A DNA stretch of 64,000 nt from assembly GCF_036365525.1 (NCBI RefSeq), contig NC_090409.1:39194437-39258436 (forward strand). The letters run 5' to 3'. This DNA comes from Heterodontus francisci (Eukaryota). The position numbers were made by a program, and so were the translations under genes. A model generated the notes under the pieces. The model did not search any database. It was given only the letters and a program-made list of their open reading frames with translations, and was not told the DNA's origin. Positions 1-60,881 of this stretch are shown piece by piece. Every line of letters begins with the position of its first letter. Positions within the stretch are counted from its first letter, which is position 1.

Positions 1-343
1 AGTACTTCGCTCCCTCCTGACATCACTACCTCCATCCCACCCCCAGCAGTACCTCACTCCCTCCTGCCATCACCATCGCCATCCCACCCCCAACAGTACC
101 TCGCTCCCTCCTGCCATCACCACCTCCATCCCACCCCCAGCAGTCCCTCGCTCCCTCCTGACATCGCCATCCCACCCCCAACAGTACCTCGCTCCCTCCT
201 GCCATCGCCACCTCCATTCCACCCCCAGCAGTCCCTCGCTCCCTCCTGACATCGCCATTCCACCCCCAACAGTACCTCGCTCCCTCTTGCCATCGCCACC
301 TCCATCCCACCCCCAACAATACCTCGCTCCCTCCTGCCATCAT
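1..343. repeat. GC-skewed minisatellite (36-47 bp variable unit, agtacctcgctccctcctgccatcgccacctccatcccacccc), intron of gene A
   Basis: Tandem units visible; reverse-complement copy at 17595-18330. Confidence 0.95.
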
Positions 344-1578
344 TGCTGCCTACCGCAGCAGTCTACTCACCACTTGCTCCTGGCATCGCTGCTTCATTCC
401 CTCTGCCATCCCTCTGCTCCCCTCCCCTGCTTATCTTTTCTGTCTCTGTGCGAGGAAGAAAGGCAGCAATCGCGGGACGGAGTGGGGAGGCTGGAGTGAA
501 TGGCCCACAGATAGGTGGAGGTGTGAAGCGTGGAGTGAGTAGGTGGGGGGGTGGGTGGTGGAGGGCGGAGATGAAGCGAGGCTGGGGGTGAGCGGTGAGC
601 AGACATTGCAGTACACAATGATGTTTGAGCGTAGACATGAGTAAGTCCTGGTAAACCGGGTGCTGACGTAGACTGCACATGGGCAGCACTGTACGAACAG
701 CAAGACTCTGATCTGCACATGTGTGAAGCTGGGAGCTTCTGATGTTGGCAGTGGGTTGCGTTGTCAGCAGTCACTTTGTTTTATTTTATTCATGTTAGTG
801 GGATGTCTGCGTCACTGGCCAGGCCAGCATTTATTGCCCATCCCTAATTGCTGTTGAACTGAGTGGCTTGCTCGGCCATTTCAGAGGGCAGTTCAGAGTT
901 AACCATATTGCTGTGAGTCTGGAGTTACGTGTAGGCCAGACCAGCAGATTTCTTTCTCTAAAGGACATTCATGAACAAATCGACTGTTTTCATGGTCACC
1001 ATTATTCTAGCTTTTTATTTTAAATTACTGATTTTATTAATTAAATTCAAATTTCACCATTTGCTGTGGGTGGGATTCAAACCCCTGTCCCCAGAGCATT
1101 CACCTGGGCTCTGGAGTACTAGTCCAGTAACAGTCCCACTACACCCCACCAGTTCCCCATAGGCCCCAGGACTCCTCAGCATTGAAGTCAGTGGAAAGTA
1201 ATACTGATCCCATTGTAAACCAGCGTTCCATCCAATCCTGTGGTTTACCCAAACAGCAAATTATTTTAAATTCCTGCTCTATTTCAGCGGGCTGTTGGGT
1301 TTAATTAAAGGGAGGCTGCTGCTGGTCAGGGTCTGGTTATCTCCATTGGAAACCATGTATTGATCACATTGTGGGTGTGTAAGAAAGTCGAGCTGTGGGG
1401 TGGCTTCCTGTGTCTGTGGCTGTTTATTGGTGTTTAATCTCCCACATCCCTCCAGGACTAGAATTGACCAGGGATGTGTTTGCACTGGGGATGGTTCTGA
1501 AACACTAGGTGCTGACAGTCTCTGCTGTTAGTTTTGTTAGTGTGTCCCAGTCTGTTAACAGCTTCATTCTGTCTCTAG

Positions 1579-1699
1579 GTCCTGGACCCTCTACTGGATT
1601 GGTAGTTGGATTGGTCATCGCAATTCTGGTTCTTGTTTGCATAATTCTTGTTCTTCTTTGCATAATTCTGGTTTTCATAATCCAAAACCGACAAAGATG
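1579..1699 (+). CDS. Gene A transmembrane exon: (G)PGPSTGLVVGLVIAILVLVCIILVLLCIILVFIIQNRQR(W)
   Basis: tctctag acceptor and gtgagt donor; phase 1 to phase 2; hydrophobic stretch followed by basic residues; paralog of gene B TM exon. Confidence 0.88.
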
Positions 1700-2844
1700 G
1701 TGAGTTCCAGAATGATCTGCAGTTCCCATTGTTAATTCTAGTTTTGTTTTATTATATTTGGTGTTGTGGAAATGTTGTGTACACTGATACACTTTGTGCT
1801 GTGTAGGATGTTTCAATGCTGCATTATCCAGTCACTTCCAGCTTGTTGTCATCCTCTAGCTGCTGAACTGAAGGTGAAGAGCAGGAATGTGCGGCTCCCT
1901 CTATCACACAGTTAATAGACACTCGCCTAATCTCTGCAGCAAACAACTCACCAGCCTACACCTAAAATCCCCTTGTCCCCTCTCCTCTGACTTTTCACCA
2001 GCCTCTGATCCTTGCTCTGTTCCCCAGTCACTGACTCCATCCCCTTCCCTGGCCACTGTCTGAGGCTGAACCAGACTGTTCACAACCTCGGAGTCCTATC
2101 AGACCCTGAGCTGAGCTTCTGACTCCATATTCTCCCATCACTCAAATCCCACCTACCTCCGCTTCTGTGATGTACCCTGTGTCCACTCTCATCCCTTGAC
2201 CTGACCATCAGTGGTTTTGATCACTAACAATAAAATATGTTGCATTTCTCTGCCTCCCTCAACATCCACATCTCCCTGCCCATCTCTTGCCCATCTGCCA
2301 GTTGTGGGGGGGAAACTATTGCAGATTCTCTAACTCTGTCCTCTGACTCTTTTTTCCCCATCACAATATTTCTGCCTCCGTCAGCCTGTTTGGTCACTGC
2401 TGGGTCGGGTTTGATCACATCAGGGAATATCCTGTCCATCTGACTCCTCTCAATAATTCAGGATCAGTCTGGAGAGTCTGGACATTCCCAGCCTCCTCCT
2501 GTCTGATCTGATCCCCATCATCTTCAGCTCAGTGTTAACTGAGATCCTCATCAATTCTTCTTAATCTCCAATGTTGAGGTGAGCTGTCATTTTTCTATTG
2601 GTCTGGTTCCTCGGTCAGCACAGGTCCTGTGGAGTGTCCAGCTCTTGCCCATTGCCTCCTCTCCTCTGCACTCTGTGCTCCATCACCGTGCAGCTCCTGT
2701 GACCCATTTTCCAGCTGCCATTGGGGCCCAGGAGGTTGAGTGTAATTTAATCGGTCTGTGCTCCTGAACAGCTCCTTTACACACTTGTACAAAGTGTTGG
2801 ATTCTTTTAATGTAACCTGAACTCTGCTGTTTTTTCCCTCCCAG

Positions 2845-3013
2845 GAAAGCGAACAAACACAACATCAATCACAATGAAGCATCTAATGTCATCCCTTTGA
2901 CAGGGGTGACTTGTTTAGGTAGCAAGGTCCCATGTTTCACAACAGCACCTGAGCATCAGAATGGAGCAGCTGGAGAACAAAACCTTCTGGGGAACGGGGC
3001 TGTCCAGCACTAA
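2845..3013 (+). CDS. Gene A last coding exon, cytoplasmic tail: (W)KANKHNINHNEASNVIPLTGVTCLGSKVPCFTTAPEHQNGAAGEQNLLGNGAVQH*
   Basis: Polypyrimidine tract plus ccag acceptor; phase 2 matches the TM exon; open to TAA at 3011-3013; frame conserved in gene B despite a 6-nt indel. Confidence 0.8.
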
Positions 3014-3319
3014 CTGAGTTTACACTGCACTGAGCCTGGGTCAGGGAGGGAAAATCAGCCCAGTATTGTGGTTATCCAGTGAATCCTGGTGGAAAGTCTG
3101 AGATCGGGATCAACAATCACTTCCCACTCTGTACAAATCCCTCTGACCAGCAGAGTCTTGAGATAATCACCCAATGAAAGTTTTGTCCCGTTACTCGAAA
3201 ACCTGTCCGATTGATATTTCATTGTATCTCAGTATTACTGATACACACTGTGTCCAAACCCAGTCTCAGGAACACACAGGACCAACTTCAGCTGTGTAAC
3301 CCATTGATCACTCCCTGTG

Positions 3320-4470
3320 TGAGATGGTAACTTCCAAAGTATCCAAATGATGAGCGAGTGGTTTTATGAAAGTGACTCTGTTTTCCTAAATAATTTTTTT
3401 AAAAAAAGGAATTTCTAGTTAAGCTAAGTAAATGTTTTTTTAATGAAGAGGACAATGAGGGCTGATTGACCAGTGTTGCTCTTTGTCACCTGGCTGGGCT
3501 CGGCTTTGAACAGAAGCCATGGCAACAGAGGCAGAAATTGACAAGCCCAGTAACAACAGACAAGATCTGGGTGGGCAGAGAACTGCCAAGCTGTTTGGTT
3601 GTTCGTCAGTGCGTGTGTGATACCTTCTGGAAGGAGACAAAAGTCAAATGCTGCTGAAGTGCCAAAGAAGGACAGAAAAAGGAAAGAATTCCAAGGAAGA
3701 ACAGAAGACTACAACCCAGTGCTTTTACTTGCAACTCCCTCAAAGATTCTGAAGTTCAGTGTGTTAATTTGTCTTGTTCCTGCATTTCAACAAGGCCTGC
3801 TAATTTGCTTTTCAACACCGCCTGAAGAGAACTAATTCTGGAAGAATCCTTTTTAACAGTTGCTCGGACGTTGGACTGTCTGCAAGTTTGGTGCAGTGCG
3901 TCTCATCTGCTATTCTTTTAGGGTGGACACGTGATCTATTTGTGTTTTTGTCTGTAACAGAGCTCTAATCTAAAAATTCTTTTTATTTTTCCAGTTGACC
4001 GATATATGTATAAGAATATATGAACATATGAATTAGGAGCAGAAGTAGGCCATTCAGCCCCTTGAGTCTGCTCCGTCATTCAATAAGATGTGTTTGTGTC
4101 TCACATCCCACACTCCCATCTACACCTCCCCCACCGCCCCCCATAACCTTTGATTCCCTTGTCTAACAAGAATCTATCTGTCTCCACTTTAAATATATTC
4201 AATGATTCCGCCTCCACCACTTTCTGAGGCAGAATATATGTATATATGACTTTATTAAAAAAAAACTTCAGGTTGCATATTCAAAAATATGCTGGTATTT
4301 TTCTTTAGCTTTTTTTAAATAAAATTGTTAATTTTGGACTGTTAAGAGGGCTGGTTAGTGTGTTCTATTCTGGGGAATAATAGTGTGGGGAAACTTTTAA
4401 AGAATATGCTGTGACCTGTGGAGAAGTGGGACTGAATTAACAGTGCACACCTCCTGCTTTGGTCATATCA
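3320..4470 (+). mobile_element. Gypsy LTR (5' boundary approximate), interrupted by an antisense CR1 3' tail at about 4010-4230
   Basis: Ends ...ggtcatatca, followed by a degenerate tRNA-Pro PBS (tgggggctc at 4480) and gag; homologous copy at about 13650-14600. Confidence 0.7.
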
Positions 4471-4479
4471 ATATTTATT

Positions 4480-6810
4480 TGGGGGCTCTCTTTTTCCAGG
4501 ATAAACCAACGCTGACCAAGTTCAATTGTAAGTGGGTTATAATAATTGGAAAAGGGAATATAAAAAGAACCAGGTTTCGTGTGTCATGGAGTAACATTTA
4601 CACCACTGGAATGTCTTTAACAGCAGCTGCAACTTGTCTGGGGAAGGTGAATGTATCCCTCAGTGATTTGAGATACTTAACCAAGATGAAATTAAAGGAT
4701 TTGGCAGACCTGTTGACATTAGAGTTACAACCAGGGGCGAAGAAAGCAGGAATAATTGACATAATAGCCCTACATTTGAAATTGGAAGAAGAAAGCAAAC
4801 CAGAGGGTAATGCAGTTGAATTAACTAAAATTCAGTTACAGACAAAGCAACTGGAGCTTCAACAAGAAACAGAATTGGAAAAAACTTGAGGCTGAAGAAG
4901 AAATGTCAGTGGAAAAACTTGAATTTGCAAAAGAGGAAAGTGAAAAAGGGAGAGCATTTCAGAGAGAAAGAAAGAAGGGAATTTGAATTTTTTTTTAAAA
5001 GCTGGAACTAAAGTAACAGGGTGATCCTGACTCCAGGAAGAATCTAAGTCCAACCCAGGACACAGTGAAAAGCTGTTTAAATTGATACAAGCTCTCCCTA
5101 AGTTTGAAGAAAGGGACGTAGAGGTATTTTTCATTGCTTTTGAAACGATAGTTAAACAAGTGAAATGGCCAAAGGAAAGCTGAACACTGCTTATGCAAAT
5201 CAGGTTGATGGGCAGAGTTCATGAACTTTATGCCATGCTTTCTGCAGAGGCTTCCACAGATTGAGATGGTAAAAAAGGCCATTCTCACTGCGTACGAGTT
5301 AGTCCCTGAAGTTTACTGACAGAAGTTTCAGAACCTCTGGTGATTGGCTGGGCAGATTAACATAGAATTTGAGAGGGTAAAACAAATTAATTTTGATTGT
5401 TGGATACGAGCATTAAAGATGGAAACCACGTATGAGAACCTTAGAGAACGGATTCTCCTGGAAGAATTTAAGAATTCACTCCCTCCAGTTGTAAGAACTC
5501 GGGTAGAGAATCAGAAGGTTTCAACAGCCGACAGGCAGCAGAAATTGCTGCTGATTGAGTTTGTGTATAAACTCAAACCCTTTGTCCGTCACCTCCACAA
5601 ACCCAAGCAGGATAGGAGGTGGGAGAGTGAAAGGAAGGCAAGTAGCCGGGGACAAGAATGGACAGCTGGGAATGCACCAGGATCTCCTCCTTGGTCCAGA
5701 AAAGAAGATGCTGAGGGTGGGAGTGAGGTCCGCAAGCCTAAATGTTACCATTGTCACAAGGTGGGACATATTCGAGCAGATTGCTGGAAGTTGTGAATTA
5801 AACCCATGGGATTTAATACGGTGCATAAAGACAATGAAGAGAAAGAGGCCCTGACCGAGCATGTAGATCAGGCTGTAGTTCTGACTGCAGCTGTAAGGAC
5901 AAGTACAAAAACCACAGAGTGTAGGGGTTGTGAATAAGATACTGGAAATTCTTGTCAAAAGGAAAAGTAACTCTTATCCCGCGAGTGAGGCAGGCAAACC
6001 TATAATTATACTTAGGGATACAGGAGCCACCCAAACGTTTGCTGGGAAAAGGCATAAAATTTGCACCAGAGAGTGCACTGAATGCTAATGTTTTAGTGAA
6101 TGGTATTGATGGGGAGTGTATACCCCTACCTTAGAGTGTGATCTAATGTCTGGAATGGTAACTGTAGGAGTTGTTCATAGCTTGCCAGTAGACAGAGTTG
6201 ATCTACTCCTGGGGAAAGATTCCAGGACTTTTTCCTCGTGTAATAACCCGAGCAATGGCTAAACAAGTTCCATTGTCGGAGGTAAAATTGCCACCACAGT
6301 CAGGTAGTTGAATATATGAAACTATCTTTGGGGATTTAGATAATCCAAATGAAATATTTGATAAATCTTCTCTGATCACAGCTCGGCTAGCTGACCCAGA
6401 GTTGAAGAATGTGACACAAACAGCTCTATCAGAAGCTGAGGTAAAAGGAGTTCCAGAAGGCTCTGATATTGAAAATGGGATTGTGATGAGGAAGTGGAGA
6501 CCTTCTCACAGACCTGTGGATGAAGACTGGACAGTTCTTCATCAGATAGTGGTATCTCTAAAGTATCACCGGGAACTATTCAGGTTAGTGCGTGGGATTC
6601 CTCCAGCGGGACATATAGGGATCCGGAAGACCGAAACACATAGAAATCAACATTACTACTGGCCAGGTCATTCCAAGGACATGGTGCAGTTTTGTAAAAA
6701 GTGCCATACATTCCAGATTGTGGGAAAACCACAACCTGCCATAATTCCCATCCCAGTTATTGGGGAACCATTTAGTAGGGTGTTGGTAGACTGTGTAGGA
6801 CACTTAACAA
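4480..6810 (+). mobile_element. Degenerate Gmr1-type Gypsy internal region (gag/SCAN-like, zinc knuckle, protease, integrase N-terminus)
   Basis: LPKFEERDVEVFF, ILLEEFKNSLP, CYHCHKVGHIRADC, LRDTGA protease motif, then GHIGIRKT..C..C and PFSRVLVDCVG directly after protease (PR-INT order); stops and frameshifts. Confidence 0.85.
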
Positions 6811-6811
6811 A

Positions 6812-7060
6812 AAGTAGTAGAGTTGGTGAGGGGGAGCCAATGGATGTGGTTTATTTGGAATTTCAGAAGGCTTTCGACAAAGTCCCACATAAGAGATTAG
6901 CGTGTAAAATTAAAGCACATGGGTTTGGGGGTAGTGTATTGCGATAGATAGAAAATTTTTTGGCGGACAGGAAACGAAGAGTAGGGATAAATGGGTCTTT
7001 TTCCGAATGGCAGGCAGTGACTAGTGAGGTACCACAGGGATCGGTGCTCGGACCCCAGCT
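6812..7060 (+). mobile_element. CR1 LINE reverse transcriptase fragment
   Basis: MDVVYLEFQKAFDKVPHKRL and VPQGSVLGP motifs. Confidence 0.9.
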
Positions 7061-7084
7061 AACCAGTGCAAGCCTGATTAAAAA

Positions 7085-7440
7085 AACAGGTTTGCACTTG
7101 CTGCTGTTCAATATTCAGTCCGTTAACACCTAATCTGTACTAATGCTTTCTCTTTCAACACACCATTAACATATTGTTTGTCTTTGCTCCATGACCTTTT
7201 GGTCAGCTATGTGGCCTTGTCCAATCTTCACCTTCTCCTTTGTTATCTCTTGCCCCACCCCCACCTCACTTGCTTATAACCTGTGACTTTTCTAATATTT
7301 GTCAGTTCTGAAGAAGGGTCACTGACCTGAAACGTTAACTCTGCTTCTCTTTTCACAGATGCTGCCAGACCTGCTGAGTGGTTCCAGCATTTCTTGTTTT
7401 TATTTCAGATTTCCAGCATCTGCAGTATTTTGCTTTTATT
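7085..7440 (+). mobile_element. Penelope-like element 3' tail
   Basis: Same tail sequence that follows the GIY-YIG ORF at 28700-29446. Confidence 0.8.
7304..7340 (+). ncRNA. Minimal type I hammerhead ribozyme motif in Penelope tail
   Basis: AGTT-CTGAAGA-[AGGGTCACTGACCT]-GAAA-C-GT-T-AACT: both core boxes, stem II hairpin, stem I AGTT/AACT, minimal palindromic stem III. Confidence 0.7.
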
Positions 7441-8319
7441 GCTCCGTTTCTAGTTCAGCTTGGACCGCTGCGCCATCTAGTGCTGAACTCCTTTACTACA
7501 GGAACCGGACTCTGCGTTGATCTGTCCTCCCTCCCTTTGCTATTAATCTCCTCTGGGTCTGTCACCCTGCGACGATGAAGGGTTTTGATGGAGTAAAGAG
7601 GGAGAAACTTTCCAGGAAGGAAAGGAGGGAGACATTACACTGCCATCAAAAACTCTGCTGCCCCGTATCCTAACTCACACCAAGTCCCGTTTATCCAACA
7701 CCCACTTCCCCGCACTGTGCCATGTGAAACATCTTGTGATGTTCTATTACATTAAAAGTGCTATATAAATGCAAGTTGTTGTTATGTGAATACAAACTCT
7801 TCTCTCAGTTCCGCCTCATGGCCTGGAACCCAGCTGTCTCCAAGCTGGTTCTCACCCATCCCTGTTTTTGTGAGATTGTGACTCTGTATTTCTGTGGGAG
7901 AATTATCATCCTTTCATTATTCTTGGTATGAACACCATATCCCAGCCCTTCCAATGACCCTGTGGCTAAAGGACCATCTGGTGCCCTAAGGGAAAAGATC
8001 CCTCAGCCAGAGCAGCAGCTAATATTGATCTCAGTACTCTGAGTGAGAGGGGAATGAGTGGCTGGTGTTCCTGTCCTGATCCCTGTCTGGAAACTCCTGC
8101 TGGACATCAGGATCAGGCTGAGATGCAATGTTAAATAAGCTGCTGAATCTAAAGGAGTTGTTTAACAAGGCTCTGCTCCCAGCATCGAGCCTTCCTACAC
8201 AGTGAATGTAGCAACAGAGAAAGGGCCACAACACAGCAGGCCAAATATTCCAACCCTCACCTAGGTGAGTCCTTCCTGGTTTATTTATCAATTTTTAGCA
8301 TTTAACCTAAACACAAAAC

Positions 8320-9540
8320 AGATTATCTGGTCACTTATCTCTCTGCTACTTGTGGGAACTTGCTGTGTGTAAATTGGTGAGAAAGACACTGTATAAATGG
8401 GAGAAACTGAAACTGAATTTTACCTTTTGGAGATACATTGAACTGTTGGTTGGGGCTCTCTCCTCATGTTGCTCTGATTTGGAACATGTTTGACTGTCCG
8501 TGTGGCCTCAAGACACACGACTTTTAATGGAATCCATACTTCAGGATAAACTAGATCTTCCTCATTGTTGTGAGTGAGTTTACTTCAGTACCCAGGACAC
8601 ATTGATCACTCCATTTAGTTGCTGTTGGCCTTGTTTCAGTATCTGAGACACATTGAATGTCCTCAAGGCTGTGGCTTTTTCACCTCTATTATAATCCTCA
8701 CTTGTTACCTCTACCCCGGTGAGCAGAGGTGAGAATTCCAGTCTCTGAATACTGGGTTTACATCCAGCAGGGAACTGGTACCCGATGGGAGCGGAGAGTC
8801 AACCCACCACCCATTGTATCTACCCAGACTCTCCTGGTAGGGCGTTGTTAGTCAGGATAAGGACCTGTCTATATAAAGAAAGAGTCTTCCTTATGGAGCA
8901 CAATCTACTGGGTGTAAAAGCAGTGGAAGGAATCAGCTGCCTCATTTTAAAATGATATATTAATTCCTGAGATGTGGGTGTCACTGACAAGGCTGGTATT
9001 TATTGTCCATCCCGAGATGCCCCTTGTGAAGGTGGTGCTGGGTCTTGAACCATTTCAGTCCCATGTGGTGAAGGTGCTCCCGCGGTGCCGTTAGGGAGGG
9101 AGATCCAGGATTTTGACCCAGTGACGATGAAGGAACGGCCGATATATCTCCAAGTTGGGACGGTGTGTGTGTGACTCGGATGGGAACATGGAGGCAATGG
9201 TGTTCCCATGCTCCTGCTGCCCTTGTCCTTCTAGGGGAGGCTGGAGGTTGTGGGTTTGTGAGGTTTTATTGAAGAATGTGGGACTGGGAACAGAAGAGAA
9301 AGAAGACTTGTTATCCTCCTTGTCCTGTCACCCTCCTCTAGGAAACCTCAATCCCAGACAATAAATTCATTCATTAAATAAAAAACACCTTTACAATAAA
9401 TACAACTGCTTTTCCCATTCCAATAAACACTTTACCCCAATTATTCCTTCTCTGATATTCCTTACTGTGATTTGCCCCTCAATAAACTGAACTTTCTAAA
9501 TTTGGTCAGTGTGACCTTTCACCTCCTGACACCCTTTTCA
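8320..9540 (+). repeat. About 1.2-kb direct duplication, copy 1 (copy 2 at about 24960-26155)
   Basis: Near-identical sequence incl. ORFs 9000-9209 and 25621-25833. Confidence 0.92.
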
Positions 9541-9609
9541 ATTTCATTGTTTCGGATTACATTGGAGATACAGCAGAGAAACAGGTCATTCTTTTCCTCA
9601 ATTTTAAAT

Positions 9610-11110
9610 TATTCATTCTTGGAATGTGGGCACTGTTACCAAGGACAGCATTTATTGCCCATCCTTAATTGTCCCTGACAAGGTGGCAGTGAGCTTCCTT
9701 CTTGAACCGCTGCAGTCCACGTGGTGGATTTACACCCACAGTTCTGTCCTGTAATTTTGCTGTCGAGGTTTGATAAAACTGAGTGTCTTGCTCGGCCATT
9801 TCAGAGGGCAGTTAAGAGTTAACCACATTGCTGTGGGTCTGGAGTTACTTGTAGACCAGACCAGACCAGGTAAGGGCGGTAGATTTACCTTCCTGAAAGG
9901 ATATTAGTGAATCAGATGGGTTTTTACAACAATCGGTAATGGTCATCTTTAAACTAGCTTTTTAATTCCAGATTTAAGTGAATTCAAATTTCACCATCTG
10001 CTCTGGTGAGATTCGTAATTATCGAGTTTCCTATTATCACATTTCTATTCTTCTCTCCCCTCCCCTGGACAGCCTCCTGACAGGGCCAGTGTCTGCGGGA
10101 CCTCCTTCTCAACCTCTCCTAAATCCCCACTACCCAGCTCCGTATTAGTCACACCCTCCCTTTCCTGAACCTGTGTTTTCCTCTGGGGTGTATTCTGGAT
10201 AAAACCGTCCAGAAATTCCTCCCCCTCTCTTATGTGTCAGAGTCTCTCCAGCTCAATGACTCTGAGCCGGAGAGATTCGAGATGGAGACATCACCTGCAG
10301 ACGTGTTTGCTCAGGACAGTCTCGCTGTCCACAAACTCCCACATTCTGCAGTCCAGACACACAATCTGCTCTGCTATATCTTAAACTAGCCTTATTTTAT
10401 TTATTTAACTGAAGTCTTTAATCAATGATTATTTGTAATTTTATAACGTAGTTTAACACGTGAAATAATAACCTTAATACACTACTTATACTTTCCCAGT
10501 TCTATGTTTAAACCACTGACGTAGTTTAGAGAAAAAGAAGCCTTAAAACTCACTAACTAATCATTTACCTGTTTATCTAATTAATGCCTCTGGACTTCAG
10601 CTCTCTGGTCTCACTGTCTCCCGCTCCCACTCTCGGATCACTCCTTGTTTTGTGAAAGACCAGAACAGCACCTCTTCCCTCCCTGCGCCGAATTCCCTCA
10701 CTCACCAAATTGTCCGAGTGAAGTACTCTGTCGCAGCAGTACGCCATCGTGCTGGCCTCCATGCTGCTCACTTGGTGTGTAAGTAAAAACCAATTCCAAA
10801 GACCTGAGTCAGGCCCTGCTGACCGGGTAAGCAGTTCTAACTCGTCACCTCATTAACTAACCGTGTAGCGACATGAGGGGAGGGCGGATCTTTTTTGGGC
10901 AGCGAGTGTTTGGGATGTGGAATGCGCTGCCTGAGAGTGTGGTGGAGGCACATTCAATGGTGGCTTTCAAAAGGGAATTGGATAATGATGTGAAGAGTAA
11001 AGTTGTGCGGGGGCTAGGGGAGGAAAAGGCGGGGGGGGCAGTGAGACTAGCTGAGTTGCTCTGACAGAGAGCCAGCACAGACAGGACGGGCCGAATGGCC
11101 TCCTCCTCTG
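9610..11110. mobile_element. Nested SINE and CR1 fragments (SINE about 9610-10020, CR1 ORF1 5' fragment on - at about 10030-10400, CR1 3' end on + at about 10870-11110)
   Basis: 9780-10010 matches 860-1080; FFGQRVFGMWNALPESVVEA is a CR1 ORF2 C-terminus. Confidence 0.65.
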
Positions 11111-11149
11111 CTCTCACCATTCTCTCATTCCATTCACTTCAACCCCTTC

Positions 11150-11330
11150 TCCCTCCAACGGCTTCTGCTCGCGCCGGGGGGGGCGGGGTCACAGCCAGCC
11201 TCCCAATCAGCGGCCGAGCCGGACTGTCACTCAGCTCTCGCCCCGCCCCCCGGCCCCGCCCCTTGGCGGCAAGGGCTTCTCCTGGCGCCAGTGTGTCAGG
11301 CTCACACTGCCGAGTGTGTGTGTGTAAGCT
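11150..11330. promoter_or_regulatory. Small CpG island/promoter-like segment with GC boxes and a CCAAT box
   Basis: ggggcgggg, ccaatcag and two ccccgcccc in a CpG-dense patch. Confidence 0.55.
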
Positions 11331-14300
11331 TCACACTACTGCTCCTGTGTGTCTGCATCGATTGCAGATAGAATTCACACAGTCTCTGCATTAGAAATAG
11401 AAAAGCTCAGCAATCTCACACAATATCAGCTGAGTCCACATTGCCTCACAGCTGATTCTTATTTCTAATCTTTACAGTGGCGAGTGTCTGACATTAAACT
11501 GAAATATCCCACAGCCTCTCTTCATATCTATCTCTTCAATTCAATCATTATGGATCTGACTGCTGTCATATATAATGTTTTATACACTTCCTACATTTCC
11601 TGTTCCTGATCTCTGTCTCTCCTGTTGAAATCTTGGCGCCTGTCTCGGGGAAGGAGCTGGGCTGTGATGCCTCCCACAGTCAAATAGCCTGTCTACATCC
11701 AGTGTAACACCAGAGAGGGCCTGGAGACCGCAGAACGGTCTGGAACGAAGGTCTTGGCCATAAACGAGTTCGTTTTGGTGTGTAATGTTGATTGGACAAT
11801 ATATTTAAAATTTGTACAAAAAAGGGATTTGGGGGAAGTGGTTCCTGAAGATCAGGTGTTGAGGAACAAGTCTGGATCCCTGATAATGAGTTACTCTGTC
11901 AACCTCCTGATTGATCTAATGCTGGGTCAGAGGGGTTTGATCTGGTTAGGCCCCATCTGGAGTCACTGTGTTCAGTCTGGGCACCGCCCTTCAGGATGGA
12001 TATATTGCCCGAGAGGGTGCAATGCAGATTCAGCAGAATGATACTGGAGTGAAAAGGGTTAAATTACAAGGACAGGTTGCACAGACGAGGCTTGTATTCC
12101 CTTTTCTATCAAAAATTAAAAGGTGATCTAATCGCTGTGTTTAAGGTAATTAAAGGATTTGACAGAATAAATAGGAGAGCCAACACAGATTAGATGGGCT
12201 GAACAGCCTCATTCTGAGTTGTAACTATTGTTTAATTGAGTTCTCTCCCCCTACATGCCCCATTCAGGTCAATAGCCCTGAACCAACATCACTTTAAATA
12301 AAACTGATGATCTGAATCATTATCACATTGCTGTTCATGGGATCTTGCTGTGCACAAGGTAGCTGCTGCATTTCCTACATTACAACAGTAACTACATTTG
12401 AAAAAGTACTTCCCTGACTGTGAAACACTTTGGGATGTCCTGAGGTGGTGAAAGACGCTATATAAATGTAAACTCTTTCTTTTATAGAGAGTACCAGAAA
12501 TGCTCACACTATCAAAGCTCGACAGTCCTGCCACATCCAGTCTTGAACGGTGGGGAACAATTAAACAACAGGCGGAGGAGGCTCCATGAACATCCCCATC
12601 CTCAGTGATGGGGGAGCCCAGCACCAGTGAAAAAGACCAGGCTGAAGTGATCACAACCATCTTCAGCTGTAAGTGCCGACTGGATGATCCATCCCGGCCT
12701 CTTCCTGAGATCCCACAATCACAGATACCGTCATCAGACAATTCAATTCACTCCAGTTAGGATCAAGAGACTTCCTGCCTGTACACAGCAGCATCTCTGT
12801 TCAGGCAGTGACAGACAGAGTCATTAAACATAACAAGACTGTACATTCACTAATATTAACACTGACTTCTCTTTAATCAGAGATTAAATCAAAAATTACA
12901 TATAGAAAAGTAACATTAATTATACAGAATAGAGGTACAGATATAGACAAAATCTATAGGACTCAGTTTCAATTGTAGAAAACATGTATAAAATATTTAC
13001 AGTATAAATTACACATAAAAACAGTGACAATGAGGACCTGGACTGCAGAGAGAGAGATCGGAGTCCAAGATATACAAATCATTAAAAGCTGGTGAACAGG
13101 CACAGATCCTTGAATTAATAAATATTGCTCGAGTGCAAAAGTGAGGACTTTCTGGTAAACCTTCATAAATTCACCAGTTTCAGCTTCAGCTGGAGTATTG
13201 AGTCTGGGGATCACACTTTAGGGAGGATGTCAAGGCTTTGGAGAGGAGATTTACTAGAATGGTTCCAGGGTGAGAGACTTCAGTAACAGAAACCACAGAA
13301 GGAGCCCATTCAGCCCATTGTGTCAACACAGCCGAAAAAACTGGCCGCCCAATATAATATGTGGAGACTGGAGAAGCCACAGGCAGTTTCAATCTATAAA
13401 ATATCTAGAAGATGGAATCGGTATATAAACAGTTACTGGCAATAATGTCGCTGCTGGTTTTGCCCAGTGGATGCTGCTGCACAGAGAGTTTCTGAAGCCT
13501 CTTCCCATGTTCACCACTGTGGGAGAACCATCGCTACAAGGACTGCAGTGGTTCAGGTACAGATGGACAATAAATGGGGCCCTGCCAGTATCACCCACAC
13601 TGAGAACAGGTTAATAAATGCATCACAAACTACCTGATGTTCCCACTGTTTGGACCGAGGCGGGAGGAGTGCACTGTTAATTCAGTCCCGCTTCTCCACA
13701 GATCACAATATATTCTTTAAGTTTTCCATTTGTTGAAACAATTCCCCAGAATAAAACACACTAACCAGGTTTCTTTACTAAACAAAATTAACAGATTATA
13801 AAACAATTCTTAACTAGTAATGCAGTAAAATAATATCACAGATCAAATTTTTAAATATCCAACATTAGATTTTAAAATGTCCCCTTTACCTTAGTTCCTT
13901 CACACTCACACATTCCTATACATAAATCAGTTAACTGGAAAAAGAAAAAGAATTTTTAGATTAGAGCTCTGTTACAGACAAAAACACAAATAGATCACGT
14001 GTCCACCCCAAAAAGAATAGCAGATGAGACTCACTGCACCAAAGAAGCAGACAGTCCAACGTCTAAGCAACTGTTACAGAAACTTCCAGAATTAGTTCTC
14101 TTCAGGCAGTGTTGAAAAGCAATTTAGCTGGCCTTGTTAAAATGCAGGAACATGACAAATTAACATGCTGAACTTCAGAGTCTTTGAGGGAATTGAGAGT
14201 AAAAGCACTGGGTTGTAGTCTTCTGTTCTTCCTTGGAATTCTTTCCTTTTTCTGTCCTTCTTTGGCACTTTAGTAGCACTTGACTTTTGTCTCCTTCCAG

Positions 14301-14905
14301 AAGGTATCACACACATGCACTGACTGACAACCAAACAGCTTGGCAGTTCGCTGCCCACCCAGATGTTCTCTGTTGTTACTGGGCTTGTCAATTTCTGCCC
14401 TTTGCCATGGCTTCTGTTCTAAGCCGAGCCCAACCAGGTGACAAACCGTTGCCAATCATCCCTCACTGTCTTCTTGAGTGAAAAACATTTAGCTTAATTT
14501 TAAATTCCTTTATTTTATTAAATAATTTTTTAAAAGTCACTTTCATAAAACCACTCGCTCATAAAGAGGATATTTTGGAAGTTACCATCTCACACAGGGA
14601 GTGATCAATGGGTTTCACAGCTGAAGTTGGTCCTGTGTGTTCCTGAGACTGGGTTTGGACACAGTGTGTATCAGTAATACTGAGATATAATGTAATATCA
14701 ATCGGACAGGTTTTCTAGTAAAGGGACAACACTGTCACTGGGTGATTATCTCAAGACTCTGCTGGTCAGAGGGGTTTGTGCAGAGTGGGAAGTGATTGTT
14801 GATCCCGATCCTGAGCTCAGACTTTCCACCAGGATTCACTGGATAACCACAATACTGGGCTGATTTTCCCCTCCCCGACCCAGGCTCAGTGCAGTGTAAA
14901 CTCAG

Positions 14906-15080
14906 TTAGTGCTGGACAGCCCCGTTCCCCAGAAGGTTTTGTTCTCCAGCTGCTCCATTCTGATGCTCAGGTGCTGTTGTGAAACATGGGACCTTGTGAC
15001 CTAAACAAGTCACCCCTGTCAAAGGGACGACATGAGATGCTTCATTTTGATTGATGCTGTGATGCTTTTGAACACAATTC
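14906..15080 (-). CDS. Gene B exon 7, cytoplasmic tail: (W)NCVQKHHSINQNEASHVVPLTGVTCLGHKVPCFTTAPEHQNGAAGEQNLLGNGAVQH*
   Basis: tttttttctcccag acceptor, phase 2, 58 codons to TAA. Confidence 0.8.
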
Positions 15081-16241
15081 CTGGGAGAAAAAAAACAGCA
15101 GAGTTCAGGTTACATTAAAAGAATCCAACACTTTGTACAAGTGTGTAAAGGAGCTGTTCAGGAGCACAGACCGATTAAATTACACTCAACATCCTGGGCA
15201 CCAATGGCAGCTGGAAAATGGGTCACAGGAGCTGCACGGTGATGGAGCACAGAGTGTAGAGGAGAGGAGGCTTATAGAGGAGGCAATGGGCAAGAGCTGG
15301 ACACTCCACAGGACCTGTGCTGACCGAGGCACCAGACCAATAGAAAAATGACAGCTCACCTCAACATTGGAGATTAAGAAGAATTGACGAGGATCTCGGT
15401 TAACACTGAGCTGAAGATGATGGGGATCAGATCAGACAGGAGGAGGCTGGGAATGTCTGTACTCTCCACACTGATCCTGAATTATTGAGAGGAGTCACAG
15501 ATGGACAGGACATTCCCTGATGTGATCAAACCCGACCCAGCAGTGACCAAACAGGCTGACGGAGGCAGAAATATTGTGATGGGGGAAAAAGAGTCAGAGG
15601 ACAGAGTTAGAGAATCTGCAATAGTTTCCCCCCCACAACTGGCAGATGGGTAAGAGATGGGCAGGGAGATGTGGATGTTGAGGGAGGCAGAGAAATGCAA
15701 CATATTTTATTGTCAGTGATCAAAAGCACTGATGGTCAGGTCAAGGGATGAGAGTGGACACAGGGTATATCACAGAAGCGGAGGTAGGTGGGATTTGAGT
15801 GATGGGGAGAATATGGAGTCAGAAGCACAGCTCAGGGTCTGATAGGACTCAGAGGTTGTGAACAGTCTGGTTCAGCCTCAGACAGTGGCCAGGGAGGGGG
15901 ATGGAGTCAGTGACTGGGGAACAGAGCAAGGATCAGAGGCTGGTGAAAAGTCAGAGGAGAGGGGCCAAGGGGATTTTAGGTGTAGGCTGGTGAGTTGTTT
16001 GCTGCAGAGATTAGGCGAGTGTCTATTAACTGTGTGATAGAGGGAGCCGCACATTCCTGCTCTTCACCTTCAGTTCATTAGCTAGAGGATGACAACAAGC
16101 TGGAAGTGACTGGATAATGCAGCATTGAAACATCCCACACAGCACAAAGTGTATCAGTGTACACAACATTTCCACAACACCAAATAGAATAAAACAAAAC
16201 TAGAATTAACAATGGGAACTGCAGAACATTCTAGAACTCAC

Positions 16242-16347
16242 CATCTTTGTCGCTTTTGGATTATGAAAACTATAAATCCCTGAAGAAGAAGAAGAAAAAG
16301 AATTCCGACAACCAATCCAACTACTGCTCCAGTAGAGGGTCCAGGAC
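16242..16347 (-). CDS. Gene B exon 6, transmembrane: (G)PGPSTGAVVGLVVGILFLLLLQGFIVFIIQKRQR(W)
   Basis: tctctag acceptor and gtgagt donor; 106 nt; phases 1/2. Confidence 0.88.
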
Positions 16348-17594
16348 CTAGAGACAGAATGAAGCCGTTAACAGACTGCGACACACTAAACAAAACTAAC
16401 AGCAGAGACTGTCAGCACCTAGTGTTTCAGAACCATCCCCAGTACAAACACATCCCTGGTCAATTCTAGTCCTGGAGGGATGTGGGAGATTAAACACCAA
16501 TAAACAGCCGCAGACACAGGAAGCCACCCCACAGCTCGACTTTCTTACACACCCACAATGTGATCAATATATGGTTTCCAATGGAGATAACCAGACCCTG
16601 ACCAGCAGCAGCCTCCCTTTAATTAAACCCAACAGCCCGCTGAAATAAAGCAGGAATTTAAAATAATTTGCCGTTTGGGTAAACCACAGGATTGGATGGA
16701 ACGCTGGTTTACAGTGGGATCAGTATTACTTTCCACTGACTTCAATGCTGAGGAGTCCTGGGGCCTATGGGGAACCGGTGGGGTGTAGTGGGACTGTTAC
16801 TGGACTAGTACTCCAGAGCCCAGGTGAATGCTCTGGGGACAGGGGTTTGAATCCCACCCACAGCAGATGGTGAAATTTGAATTTAATTAATAAAATCAGT
16901 AATTTAAAATAAAAAGCTAGAATAATGGTGACCATGAAAACAGTCGATTTGTTCATGAATGTCCTTCAGAGAAAGAAATCTGCTGGTCTGGCCTACACGT
17001 AACTCCAGACTCACAGCAATATGGTTAACTCTGAACTGCCCTCTGAAATGGCCGAGCAAGCCACTCAGTTCAACAGCAATTAGGGATGGGCAATAAATGC
17101 TGGCCTGGCCAGTGACGCAGACATCCCACTAACATGAATAAAATAAAACAAAGTGACTGCTGACAATGCAACCCACTGCCAACATCAGAGTGCTCCCAGC
17201 TTCACACATGTGCAGATCAGAGTCTTGCTGTTAGTACAGTGCTGCCCATGTGCAGTCTACGTCAGCACCCGGTTTACCAGGACTTATTCATGTCTACGCT
17301 CAAACATCATTGTGTACTGCAATGTCTGCTCACCGCTCACCCCCAGCCTCGCTTCATCTCCCCTCCCCACCCCACCCACTCACTCCACACTTCACACCTC
17401 CACCTATCTGTGGGCCATTCACTCCAGCCTCCCCACTCCCTCTGCCACCCCACGATTGCTGCCTTTCTTCCTCGCACAGAGACAGAAAAGATAAGCAGGG
17501 GAGGAGAGGGGGAGGGGAGCAGAGGGATGGCAGAGGGAATGAAGCAGCGATGCCAGGAGCAAGTGGTGAGTAGACTGCTGCGGTAGGCAGCGAT

Positions 17595-18330
17595 GATGGC
17601 AGGAGGGAGCGAGGTACTGATGGAGGTGGCGACGGCAGGAGGGAGCGAGGTACTGATGGAGGTGGCGATGTCAGGAGGGAGCGAGGTACTGCTGGGGGTC
17701 GGATGGAGGTCGTGATGTCAGGAGGGAGCGAGGTACTGCTGGGGGTGGGATGGACGTGGCAAAGGCAGGAGGGAGCGAGGTACTGTTGGGGGTGGGATGG
17801 AGGTGACGAAGGCAGGAGGGAGCGCGGTACTGATGGAGGTGGCGAAGGCAGGAGGGAGCGAGGTACTGATGGAGGTGGGATGGAGGTAGTGATGTCAGGA
17901 GGGAACGAGGTACTGTTGGGGGTAGGATGGAGGTAGCGAAGGCAGGAGGGAGCGAGGTACTGATGGGGGTGGGATGGAGGTGGCGAAGGCAGGAGGGAGC
18001 GAGGTACTGATGGAGGTGGCGATGGCAGGAGGGAGCGAGGTACTGCTGGGGGTGGGATGGAGGTGGCGATGGCAGGAGGGAGCGAGGTACTGATGGGGGT
18101 GGGATGGAGGTGGCGAAGGCAGGAGGGAGCGAGGTACTGATGGAGGTGGCGATGGCAGGAGGGAGCGAGGTACTGCTGGGGGTGGGATGGCGATGTCAGG
18201 AGGGAGCGAGGTATTGCTGGGGGTGGGATGGAGGTGGTGATGGCAGGAGGGAGCGAGGTACTGTTGGGGGTGGGATGGAGATGGCGATGGCAGGAGGGAG
18301 CGAGGTACTGTTGGGGGTGTGATGGAGGCA
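17595..18330. repeat. G-rich minisatellite in gene B intron 5
   Basis: ggcaggagggagcgaggtactgctgggggtgggatggaggtggcgat and shorter variants. Confidence 0.95.
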
Positions 18331-19192
18331 GTGATCACAGCCACTGTGGGCATTTGTGTTTCATTTGTTTTGTGATAAATTGAGCGTCGCCATCTTTATT
18401 ACTGGCAGCTGCCAAAAAAGGTCACAGACAGCGACGTTTCAGTGGATCAGGCTGCATTTTCACATATGCAAGTATTGCGACACCTAGTGGATGAATTGTC
18501 AGAAAATGCAGCAAAAGAATAAAAAACTCCCTCCTGACTGTATACCACTGTGCCCCCACCTCGGGTGGGTCTGTCCTGCCAGTGGGACAAGACATACCCA
18601 GGGATGGTGATAGAGGAGTCTGGGATGTAGGGTTGATTCTGTGAGTGTGACTGTCTCACACAGCTCGCCCAACATGGAGACCAGTCTCCAGAGGTCAGTG
18701 AGGGGGACTTTGCAGTGTTGACTGGGCTGGGTTTGCCTTTGCTGTGTCCTTATTCGATTCCTGGGTCACAGCCAGTGGGCCAGTTTTATTCTTGTTTTTC
18801 TTTCTAGTGGTTTGATACAAACTGATTGAAGTGGCCGAGCAAATCAGAGGGCAGTTAAAAGTCAACCAGGTTAATGTGGGACAGGAGTCACATATAGACC
18901 AGACCGGGTAAGGACGGCAGGTTTCCTTCCCTAGAGGGACATTAGTGAACCAGTTGGGTTTTCCAACAATCCAACAGCTTCATGGTCACTTTTATTGGGA
19001 CCAACTTTATATTTCCAGATTTATTTTAAACTGAATTTCAATTCTGAAAGTGCCATGGTGGGATTTGAAGCCACGTTCTCTAGATTATTAGTCCAGGCCT
19101 CTGGATTACTAGTCGAGTAACATAACCACTGCACTGCCGTACCCATAAAATCAGAGAGTAAATGCAGAATACCTGAAACAGAAACCTCTCAC

Positions 19193-19519
19193 CTGTTACA
19201 GAGAGATGGATTGAATCAGTTTGTTGCCATTGATAGTGCTCACCAATCCTCTTGTAAATCTGACACTGATACTCATTCTGGTCTGACTGCCTGAGGTCAG
19301 AGATCATTAGTGACCAGTTGCCTTGTTCCAGTTGATCTTGGAACAGGTTTGTTCTGTTTCTGAACTGTGGGTCTTGTTGTGTTAAATCATCGTTCCCATC
19401 GATAAACTTGTGTAAAATTTCACGATTGGATATCCACCAAATTACCTGTAATTCAGAGACTGGGACATTCCCTTTGTAGATACAGGGCAGCACAACCTGC
19501 TCCCCAAGGAACCCAGAAA
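19193..19519 (-). CDS. Gene B exon 5, second IgV domain (B7/BTN/CD276-like)
   Basis: VVLPC, VIWW, DPQFRNRTNLF..QLEQGNWSLMISDLRQSDQNEYQC; ttttccag acceptor and gtgaga donor; 327 nt, phase 1-1. Confidence 0.92.
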
Positions 19520-20181
19520 CTGGAAAAGATTGAAAGTATTTATCCACAGATATAACCTCCCTGCTGGTACATTCCATCCCAAGCTTCACATGGTTACACT
19601 GCGATGCTTGATTTACAAGAAGCACTGATCAGTAACTCACTGCTTTCATTTCTGTGGGAAGGTTAAAGGTCAGCAATGCAGTATTTATAATGACAAGTCT
19701 CCAGTACAGTGTACACTATTCTTGTCATTTTTAAAATGGAAACATCTCCGTGTCACACACTGAAACAAGTAAATATCTACATTTTTACAATTTAACGCTG
19801 GTTTTACAACTGGGTCAATATTACTTGCCGTTGACCTCAATTAGCATTGCACCAATCCCAGTTTCCCAACTGGAGGGTTCGGTTAAAATTGTACCGAATC
19901 TTTTCACAGACTCCCAGAAACACTGATGCTAGTGGGAAGCAGGAATCCTCAGAGTTCTGTATCAGAGGGACAGGAAGGCGAGTCTCAGAAACAGAAATAA
20001 CAATTGCAGGTAGTTTAAGGAGCAGTTACAGGTAACGGTGTCCCACATCACTCACTCTCACAGAATCATTCATTGGTAAAATATCACAGCATTTCAAACC
20101 TTCCAATATTACTACCTGTCTATCCAGCATGATCAAATGTAAAATCTAAAAACACATGCAGTAGTTTAGAAATAGATTTAC

Positions 20182-20220
20182 CTGGTACAGGTGTGTTCGG
20201 TACAGGTGTACGAGCTCGCT
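20182..20220 (-). CDS. Gene B exon 4, 39-nt Pro/Thr linker: (E)RARTPVPNTPVP
   Basis: ttttctttag acceptor and gtaaat donor; phase 1-1; conserved in gene C at 63061-63099. Confidence 0.75.
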
Positions 20221-21545: not shown

Positions 21546-21869
21546 CTGTTACAGAGAGATGGACAACTTGATGAAAGACTGGACTCGACCTCTGCAGAAT
21601 CTGACATCGATACTCATTCTGGTCTGACTGCCTGAGGTCAGAGATCATGAGTGACCAGTTGCCTTGTTCCAGTTGATCTTTGAACAGGTTTGTTCTGTTT
21701 CTGAACTGTGGGTCTTGTTGTGTTAAATCATCGTTCCCATCGACAAAATTATGTAAAACTCCGCGCTTGAATATCCACCAAATTACCTGTAACTCAGAGA
21801 CTGGGACATTCCCTTTGTAGGTACAGGGCAGCACAACCTGCTCCCCAAGGAACCCAGAAACTGAGTAAC
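21546..21869 (-). CDS. Gene B exon 3, first IgV domain (B7/BTN/CD276-like)
   Basis: Canonical Cys, Trp and DxxxYxC; splice sites intact; 324 nt, phase 1-1. Confidence 0.92.
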
Positions 21870-23004: not shown

Positions 23005-23068
23005 CTGAAACAGCAGCAACAGCATTTAGCAGCAGCAGCAGGAGGAGGAGTTTCTGTAAGTTGGGTCC
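23005..23068 (-). CDS. Gene B exon 2, signal peptide: GPNLQKLLLLLLLLNAVAAVS(G)
   Basis: ttttcttgttgcag acceptor and gtaagc donor; poly-Leu core with AVAAVS cleavage region; phase 0 to 1. Confidence 0.85.
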
Positions 23069-23621: not shown

Positions 23622-23642
23622 CTGCAGTGTTTTTCCATCCAT
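23622..23642 (-). CDS. Gene B exon 1 coding part: MDGKTLQ
   Basis: gcaATGG Kozak context; cag|gtattg donor; phase 0 matches exon 2; the same arrangement recurs in all leader cassettes. Confidence 0.7.
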
Positions 23643-60826: not shown

Positions 60827-60881
60827 GGACCCAACTTCCAGAAACTCCTCCTCCTGCTGCTGCTGCTAAATGCTGTTGCAG
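60827..60881 (+). CDS. Gene C exon 2, signal peptide: GPNFQKLLLLLLLLNAVA(G)
   Basis: ttgcag acceptor and gtaagc donor; in-frame 9-nt deletion relative to gene B. Confidence 0.85.

Follow-up and report, generated by a model that had tools for sequence, protein, structure and literature searches.

A shark cluster of B7-like genes in which recombination may join three transmembrane exon types to the same ectodomains

Introduction

Among the systems described so far, the chicken BG family comes closest to the genes reported here. According to two papers (PMC4046983, PMC5043582), its members consist of a signal peptide, a single V-like domain and a transmembrane (TM) segment, are arrayed in tandem, vary in copy number, form hybrid genes, exchange cassettes and fall into two TM groups. 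The shark family likewise joins a single V domain to a TM segment in a tandem array with hybrid genes. The BG genes, however, are described as having TM segments that are virtually identical from gene to gene and tails of many heptad exons, whereas in the shark family the TM exon is the most divergent exon and a heptad-repeat tail of many small exons is absent, the tail being one exon of 19-57 codons. The shark family also differs in having no extra Cys at the CDR1-like loop.

The B7 ligands CD276 (B7-H3), VTCN1 (B7-H4) and PD-L1, together with MOG, provide the best matches to the shark IgV domain in sequence and fold, and share with the shark proteins a type I topology, a short tail and a TM-skipped isoform. 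Canonical B7 ligands, in contrast, possess a constant Ig domain, whereas the shark family has V or V-V only, and exists in 19 copies. In the red and green opsins, exon 5 is far more divergent than the converted introns that flank it in neighbouring duplicates, and according to PMC3924837 this divergence peak marks selected sites; in the opsins, function tells which sites are selected and one pair is concerned, whereas the shark family comprises 19 genes and three TM types. Paired leukocyte receptors (KLRC, Ly49, PIR) carry a similar ectodomain on different TM and cytoplasmic lineages (PMC3210942), but the shark genes have no ITIM, no basic TM residue and near-identical tails.

Our literature search, whose coverage lacks most subscription journals, found no paper on this family, which has so far been known by automatic database names only (CD276-like, MOG-like, ICOS ligand-like); such names do not imply orthology to those genes. 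Its members are candidate shark equivalents of the BG/butyrophilin-like T-cell ligands.

Organization of the locus

The cluster consists of 19 B7/CD276-like genes, each with a signal peptide, IgV, an optional stalk, a TM segment and a short tail. The window, by which we mean the whole 64-kb stretch of DNA analysed, contains parts of genes A (g02) and B (g03) in the two arms of an inverted repeat, and the beginning of a third member, g04. Coordinates are those of the window.

1..4023, + strand: left arm of the inverted repeat (IgV-TM intron with a 47-bp minisatellite, TM exon, intron, tail exon and 3' flank)
1579..1699, + strand: gene A TM exon, type I (121 nt, from AG/GT ends and translation; identical in four A copies)
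1632..1673, + strand: 21-nt (heptad) tandem duplication defining TM type I (19/21 match in A, 21/21 in g04)
2845..3013, + strand: coding part of the tail exon of gene A (55 aa without Tyr, K-type start)
13906..19673, - strand: right arm of the inverted repeat (homology to gene A continues through the second IgV exon of B, with alignments over 14366-19673 and 13906-19673)
14906..15080, - strand: coding part of the tail exon of gene B (57 aa without Tyr; NCVQ-type start that brings a juxtamembrane Cys)
16242..16347, - strand: gene B TM exon, type II (106 nt; 24-residue core with Gln-Gly)
19193..19519, - strand: gene B second IgV exon, A-like (from sequence comparison with the IgV of A)
20182..20220, - strand: Pro/Thr stalk exon of gene B (39 nt; flanked by GT-AG joints)
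21546..21869, - strand: gene B first IgV exon (joint 20220-21546)
23005..23068, - strand: gene B signal-peptide exon (joints to IgV exons)
23622..23642, - strand: probable first coding exon of gene B (begins with ATG, 7 codons; N-terminus shared with database proteins P0018 and P0024)
60827..63101, approximate, + strand: signal, IgV and stalk exons of g04, whose type I TM exon lies just beyond the window end

The first-pass annotation had described A and B as near-identical inverted twins. This holds for the arms, which are 92.4% identical by alignment (1-4023 against 17914-13906), and fails for the whole genes: in B, two IgV exons are accompanied by a stalk exon, whereas A, whose IgV and signal exons precede the start of the window, has one IgV exon and no stalk exon that we could find. 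The IgV of A and the second IgV of B differ at 11 nucleotides (3 synonymous, 8 non-synonymous), and the first IgV of B matches the A-type IgV at 83 of 105 residues. The joints listed include none from the second IgV of B to its TM exon, which is no evidence of absence.

In run X5, the NCVQ-type tail of B is joined to the type II TM, and the tail exon of A is spliced to a TM exon (at joint 15061-16241, where the letters agree with the start of the A tail). Run X9 has no coverage of the type II TM core, and this too is no evidence of absence. We considered a mucin-like stalk encoded by the 47-bp repeats (1-342 and 17595-18335) and rejected it; the repeats lie in the IgV-TM intron and are skipped by database models and joints. 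The flanks contain an IIGP-type GTPase, and two other B7-type IgV exons lie 0.5-0.6 Mb away.

The ectodomain is of B7 ligand type

Judged by its sequence and predicted fold, the ectodomain of the family is of B7 ligand type. The IgV domain scores above the cut-off for Pfam V-set, its best PDB sequence matches are CD276 (2e-19), B7-H4 (2e-14) and MOG (5e-11), and its top Foldseek matches are the IgV domains of PD-L1 and B7-H4. The exon structure provides a signal peptide and a single-pass type I topology, and the structural model has a helix at 30-46, V strands at 53-162 and one helix at 168-213. The V-like domain places the family in the B7 superfamily in its broad sense, which includes MOG, BG and the butyrophilins. 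The V plus constant arrangement is absent, with only V-set above the cut-off in P0016 and V-V in P0003, and the IgV joins the stalk or TM directly. No Pfam match to the cytoplasmic B30.2 (PRY-SPRY) domain typical of butyrophilins was found, and the tails stop after at most 57 residues.

Three transmembrane types

Three TM types occur within the 19 genes, and all three are seen spliced in one RNA-like run; no source among those listed is recorded as RNA. The hydrophobic core of type I in A comprises 29 residues, with two Cys spaced seven residues apart, that is, one heptad, on the same helical side. The duplication behind this type had been taken for a 13-nt microduplication; its actual unit is 21 nt, or seven codons (1632-1673). 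Across the family, the inner half of the TM helix varies (length 23-31; Cys, Gln or Ala), as do the first tail residues, and most TM changes replace one hydrophobic residue with another. In the C-terminal block, 12/12 codons before the final QR are variable, while the central Val-Gly-Leu is invariant. Asp in g09 and His in g10 are unusual, and these sequences make some TM changes look like tolerated damage.

All 19 TM exons are open and in frame, which bears out for the whole family the earlier observation that indels preserve frame, and translation confirms the TM peptides and tail starts reported for A and B. Two full-length orphan copies on other contigs (C1, C22) carry stops; dead as they are, they too are in frame.

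Gene B is a hybrid

The pairing of TM type and ectodomain is loose. Genes g01, g06, g10 and g14 differ at 0-3 of 97 IgV residues, yet their TM types are III, I, III and II, and five of the six combinations of TM type and tail start occur. The upstream intron of B differs from that of A by 1.6% and from those of g12/g14 by 11.5-12%. The relation is reversed in the TM exon, where the distance is 15% to A and 2% to g12/g14, and in the downstream intron the distance to g12/g14 is 0.7-1.1%. On the 3' side, B and g14 are 98% identical across 5.7 kb. The changeover can be placed narrowly:

1589..1615 in A coordinates, + strand (B about 16337-16311): switch interval from A-like to g12/g14-like, from informative sites

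Informative sites divide 20:1 before position 1595 and 7:56 after it (Fisher p = 1.6e-12); the last upstream site shared by A and B is 1588, and the first coding sites specific to B/g12/g14 are 1616-1617. In AU tests of trees for the TM, intron and tail, each partition's tree was rejected on the other two (all p <= 2e-5). Gene B is a hybrid with an A-like upstream intron and a TM and 3' part from the g12/g14 lineage, the switch falling inside the TM exon; that B, and not g12/g14, is the recombinant would follow from parsimony only. The TM hotspot between A and B therefore arises mainly because B carries the TM of another lineage, and on this pattern of distances and informative sites we rejected a recent mutational hotspot between true twins in favour of the hybrid origin.

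Divergence of the transmembrane exon

The claim that the TM exon is a divergence hotspot with sparse differences in the adjacent introns was upheld. A and B differ by substitution at 16/106 sites in the TM exon, against 21/1226 in the upstream and 28/1146 in the downstream intron (about 2% each; binomial p = 7e-10 for the excess over the intron rate), and at 6/30 sites in the first 30 nt of the tail exon, against 4/138 in the remainder. Family diversity reaches 0.20 at 1620-1679, compared with 0.01-0.03 in the nearest intron windows.

It is not the sole peak. The non-coding 3' flank at 3343-4023 differs at 60/681 sites (8.8%, a figure from global alignment, the A projection used elsewhere ending at 3563) and includes one 106-nt window with 21 A/B differences by BLAST projection; relative to this unconverted flank the TM excess is modest (p = 0.02). 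Within the intron, diversity of 0.14-0.15 is found at 2100-2219, and the 3' flank shows a peak in the family as well.

Peaks of similar height in non-coding DNA are among the observations that a neutral island would produce. Under this alternative, old paralogous TM lineages under weak constraint, for which any hydrophobic stretch suffices, altered in length by triplet slippage, would block conversion tracts by their heterology and do the same job; we regard it as possible, though doubtful. It accords with the closeness of pS (0.15) to pN (0.19) in the A/B TM exon, with a TM pS between types of 0.14 that equals the mean IgV pS of 0.138, and with the odd residues tolerated in g09 and g10. CTT/GTT runs also make in-frame indels unaided. 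The five length changes inferred are all multiples of 3, against 3/22 non-coding indels, and we discarded this contrast as proof of selection: it is weak because of the triplet repeats and the in-frame dead orphans. For the same reason, the frequency of frameshifting variants among paralogs, proposed in the first-pass annotation as a test of neutral slippage, does not discriminate, since slippage in CTT/GTT triplet runs alone yields in-frame indels and the two dead orphans are in frame too. Against the neutral reading, moderate indels made no peaks by themselves: next to four indels of 7-13 nt in the introns, the 55 nt to each side contain no more than 1-3 substitutions, though these indels may be younger. 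All three types, moreover, are kept and spliced.

The M2a signal in the TM exon also counts against neutrality. M2a is preferred there over M1a with p = 0.015 (0.03 without three multi-hit codons), in a test of 30 codons and 11 distinct TM sequences of 19, recombining and hand-anchored, conditions that inflate false positives. Overall omega is 1.68 and not significantly above 1 (p = 0.13), as a neutral island would have it. TM tree length is 0.71 for codon positions 1+2 and 0.47 for position 3, against 0.21 for the intron. In the IgV, M2a indicates sites under selection (p = 1e-4), from 12 of 22 exons with near-identical copies dropped; g06 was absent from the pattern search and included in the later IgV comparison. 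M0, M1a and M2a were run with our own code on fixed nucleotide trees, with recombination left out of the model, and the TM alignment omits the length-variable middle.

A selected anchor and its alternatives

In our preferred reading, to which we give about an even chance, the TM types are selected anchor modules, recombined onto the same ectodomains and tuning membrane residence, trafficking and turnover. A and B belong to a 19-gene cluster of B7-like, V-domain-only membrane proteins, predicted to act as ligands through the IgV, in which recombination has joined three TM exon types to the same ectodomains. The types would be older than the flanking introns, which separate exchanges, about 1.6% ago upstream and 2.3% downstream, may have homogenised, so that the exon now stands out as an island. 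It is likely that selection maintains the separate types, since they would set membrane residence and turnover. The inner helix half and the first tail residues (length 23-31, Cys in or just after the helix, Lys after) are predicted to control acylation, partitioning into ordered membrane and ubiquitin-dependent removal. As precedents, the TM core of CD86 determines recognition by MARCH1 (PMC8319528), and palmitoylation of PD-L1 increases its raft affinity (10.1101/2021.10.17.464736).

Should the types prove functionally different, nature would have carried out a swap experiment in this cluster, the same ectodomain being already present on three anchors, and one could test directly what TM length and acylation do in B7-type ligands. 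If they are neutral, it is a clean example of recombination mimicking a selection peak.

The earlier proposal that TM divergence, combined with tyrosine-free tails, reflects partner choice survives in part: the family-wide peak and conserved frame stand, the tails of A and B do lack Tyr, and a functional difference is plausible. The types might form different homo- or heterodimers without the help of charges, using a glycine face, the Gln or the pair of Cys, which we think unlikely. A small-xxx-small motif is present in all types, type II has its Gln and type I its two same-side Cys, and chicken BG proteins, which fall into two TM groups, are described as dimers whose TM face is flattened (PMC4046983). 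The glycine face, however, forms the conserved half of the exon, in A and B alike; the GxxxGxxxG motif thought special to B has a small-xxx-small-xxx-small counterpart in A (G, G, A at 0, 4, 8), and on a simple 100-degree wheel the type II Gln points about 120 degrees away from the middle of this face.

The adaptor part of the proposal fares worst. Paired receptors, one signalling through DAP10, DAP12 or FcR-gamma and the other inhibitory, would fit a shared ectodomain with divergent TM and tail (PMC3210942), and Arg does occur in the TM core of 3/39 homologous proteins with a called TM, all from two white shark genes. Yet Lys and Arg are absent from all 19 TM cores of this genome, 17/19 tails are Tyr-free and the two that bear Tyr lack a YxxL-type motif, no ITIM occurs in the family, the A and B tails are 43/46 identical beyond their start, and the ectodomain is that of a B7-type ligand. 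We consider this reading very improbable.

Evasion of pathogen proteins that recognise B7-type ligands in the membrane and clear them from the cell surface could also drive TM and juxtamembrane change. In CD86, a viral MARCH-type ligase was resisted by many single TM substitutions (PMC8319528), and both the IgV sites under selection and the TM typing in several shark orders would agree with such an arms race. The family, however, shows few stable types rather than continuous turnover, and four A copies have identical TM exons. We know of no shark pathogen factor that acts in this way on B7-type ligands, and hold this explanation to be quite unlikely, somewhat more so than partner choice.

Other sharks

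Among homologous database proteins, TM typing recurs in several shark orders. From the sequences compared, the uncoupling of IgV and TM recurs in white shark: P0028 and P0041 match at 91/109 IgV residues and only 9/22 TM residues, whereas P0027 and P0041 match at 70/109 and 24/28. It is conceivable, and we put it forward tentatively, that V-only B7-like ligands with an interchangeable selected anchor exist in several shark orders, a few TM types and two juxtamembrane types being recombined onto each binding domain and giving one specificity different membrane residence and half-life. Were the anchor module real, the diversity of an immune gene family would extend beyond the binding face to the anchor, a pattern repeated across several shark orders. 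Whale shark and zebra shark share one separate TM type without a single change (21/21, with IgV 100/109 and tail 38/46), which argues against a neutral island.

Divergence between the inverted-repeat arms

The window starts inside an inverted repeat whose arms align at 92.4% identity. Each arm holds one transmembrane (TM) exon and one tail exon, so the neighbouring genes A (g02) and B (g03) are oriented tail to tail.

1-4023 versus 17914-13906, opposite strands: inverted-repeat arms
1579-1699, forward strand: A TM exon, left arm
16347-16242, reverse strand: B TM exon, right arm
2845-3013: A tail exon, left arm
15080-14906: B tail exon, right arm

The first-pass annotation singled out the TM exon as the point where A and B diverge, and this was confirmed: 16 of 106 aligned sites differ (binomial p = 7e-10 against the intron rate), compared with 21/1226 in the upstream intron and 28/1146 in the downstream one. 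In the tail exon, six sites and a 6-nt indel separate the two genes over the first 30 nt, and 4/138 sites over the remainder. Since the 3' flank past position 3343 is 8.8% divergent, the low intron values should not be the sole baseline for this peak. The microduplication proposed in A exists and gives two Cys one heptad apart; its unit was revised to 21 nt.

The gene family

A genome search located, inside 0.48 Mb of contig C39, 19 TM exons plus 22 IgV exons free of stops at 70% identity or above, including four copies of A, with identical TM exons, and three of B. TM exon lengths range from 103 to 127 nt, and the claim that the frame is kept holds for all 19. Two orphan copies, on contigs C1 and C22, both contain stops.

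TM-exon types in the cluster
Type; hallmark; core; genes
I; Cys heptad duplication; 27-31 residues; 9
II; Gln-Gly; 23-24 residues; 5
III; Ala-Val, similar to the form in other sharks; 23-25 residues; 5

Tail starts are either K-type (8 genes) or NCVQ-type, with a juxtamembrane Cys (11 genes), and similar forms are present in other shark orders. In g04, g05, g10 and g17 on C39 the tail is shortened to 19-30 residues; the missing C-terminal segment has an acidic di-leucine-like motif conserved across sharks.

B is complete within the window, running on the reverse strand through a short first exon, signal exon, IgV, Pro/Thr stalk, second IgV, TM and tail, and A has one IgV, 1.3-1.7 kb upstream of the window start. 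The IgV is a V-set domain whose closest solved structures are CD276, B7-H4, MOG, PD-L1 and BTN3A. The AlphaFold2 prediction for an A-type protein (mean pLDDT 74) has a single V domain and a single long helix, with the tail disordered; the modelled fold matches the PD-L1 and B7-H4 IgV. Every one of the 46 database relatives is a shark protein, the nearest (99%) being labelled Heterodontus francisci; their names are automatic and mutually inconsistent. Among the four A copies, 1-4 IgV residues differ, although their introns are 0-0.3% apart. The IgV of the A copy next to the window (locus L031, 4796-5140, upstream of it) has Pro in the D-strand region where every other IgV has Leu, a possibly damaging replacement.

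Recombination of TM exons

Judged by its sequence affinities, B is a hybrid gene. Its distance from A is 1.6% upstream of the TM exon, 15% within it and 2.3% downstream; the corresponding distances from g12 and g14 are 11.5-12%, 2% and 0.7-1.1%. Informative sites run 20:1 for A and then 7:56 for g14 (p = 1.6e-12), switching in the 5' part of the exon, and the 3' side of B matches g14 at 98% over 5.7 kb, far beyond where A homology stops. A parsimony argument points to B, not g12 or g14, as the recombinant. A downstream segment unites A, B, g12, g14, g06 and g18 irrespective of TM type, which requires a second exchange there, and the trees built from the TM, the downstream intron and the tail are mutually incompatible (AU p <= 2e-5). 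The clearest example of TM exchange on a near-constant IgV comes from g01, g06, g10 and g14, which sit at the equivalent place in four copies of the repeated cluster unit: 0-3 of 97 IgV residues differ, and the TM types are III, I, III and II, respectively. The A/B peak is real and largely explained by recombination.

Possible selection on the TM exon

The evidence on selection is mixed. All cluster TM copies are open, the TM tree length at codon positions 1+2 is 0.71 versus 0.21 in the intron, and no divergence peaks flank intron indels of 7-13 nt. M2a is favored over M1a (p = 0.015; 0.03 after dropping three multi-hit codons) in a test that takes no account of recombination. In database gene models, IgV and TM are likewise uncoupled in white shark, and a separate TM type is identical at 21/21 between whale shark and zebra shark (tail 83%, IgV 92%). 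A divergence peak between converted introns is described as a signature of selection (PMC3924837, excerpt). Set against this, third codon positions are also elevated (tree length 0.47 on 30 sites), A/B pS (0.15) is close to pN (0.19), the overall omega of 1.68 fails to reach significance (p = 0.13), the TM exon exceeds the 3' flank by a modest margin (p = 0.02) and peaks are present in non-coding sequence too. A neutral island, in which the TM types carry no selected difference, is a possible, if somewhat unlikely, explanation.

The site signal in the IgV is stronger than that in the TM (p = 1e-4), and its variation clusters in the C-C' and F-G segments, which would correspond to the receptor-binding face of B7 proteins. 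We consider an arms race within the membrane quite improbable.

Probable role of the membrane anchor

The genes had been proposed to encode paired receptors, whose defining features are given as a TM basic residue and an ITIM (PMC3210942, excerpt). With Lys/Arg in 0 of 19 TM cores and no ITIM found in the family's tails, both features fail, and classical paired receptors are very hard to credit. Among 39 homologues in which a TM was called, 3 have an Arg in its core, all from two white shark genes (P0006/P0007 and P0027); the Heterodontus francisci genome has no such copy.

Helix positions 0, 4 and 8 are Gly, Gly, Ala in A and Gly, Gly, Gly in B. Conservation lies in the helix's outer half, while all 12 codons preceding the final QR in the C-terminal block are variable. 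The variation thus comes down to helix length, a Cys/Gln/Ala site near the inner end and the presence of Cys or Lys immediately inside the membrane. Partner choice through the TM, the earlier suggestion, seems improbable. In mammalian B7 proteins, the TM core is reported to determine MARCH1 recognition (PMC8319528, excerpt) and palmitoylation to increase raft affinity (10.1101/2021.10.17.464736, excerpt). From these precedents and the TM and juxtamembrane differences we infer, at roughly even odds, that the family proteins would be ligands, with membrane residence and turnover both tuned by the type of anchor.

Presumed transcripts

In sequencing run X5 (organism A; presumed RNA, with GT-AG joints), a contig spans a type II core joined to an NCVQ tail start; the run also has loose ends that match types I and III, as well as a TM joined to the A tail start. 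Joints of the IgV-stalk, stalk-TM or TM-tail kind occur in runs X9, X11 and X12 (organism B), with a type I TM in X9; run contigs resolve neither gene copy nor expression amount. Another X5 joint (window 15080-20182) connects the stalk exon directly to the tail exon, leaving out the TM, and the tail is then read in a shifted frame for 19 residues before a stop. The product is predicted to be a secreted isoform of some family member.

Comparison with known families

Chicken BG genes are the closest in their workings, being described as a dynamic array of V-only B7 relatives that includes hybrid genes (PMC4046983, PMC5043582, excerpts). In those excerpts the BG TM is almost uniform, whereas in the shark family it is the most variable exon. 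BG, butyrophilin and canonical V-C B7 identities were ruled out on the features tested. Our literature search, which covered subscription journals thinly and included excerpts of PMC10751288, PMC11599192 and PMC6795676, found no description of the family.

Surroundings of the cluster

An 81-bp minisatellite lies in the family's first intron (window 23144-23599, 29848-30774, 35263-35914, ~40070-40200 and ~47350-47660). Several copies accompany isolated first or signal exons without a nearby IgV, which suggests gene fragments. Between the arms, 4600-6800 holds a decayed gag/pol-like retrotransposon with weak, sub-cut-off SCAN and zinc-knuckle matches. The reverse strand of 41795-44635 contains many ORFs, one with a signal-like start and numerous Cys; we take the stretch to resemble a retroelement envelope region, and a Pfam search with four of its ORFs gave no match. 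A 43-bp satellite occupies 48696-55532 (159 copies, 94% matches).

About 70 kb beyond the cluster is an interferon-inducible GTPase (IIGP) ORF (locus L062, 7453-8157; E = 8e-40). Two further B7-type IgV exons lie 0.5-0.6 Mb off on C39 (L064, 6499-6771, at 38.58 Mb; L065, 4641-4985, at 38.71 Mb), with ~31% identity to the cluster family and CD276 as best PDB match. Contig C29 carries a larger group of IgV exons, ~35% identical.
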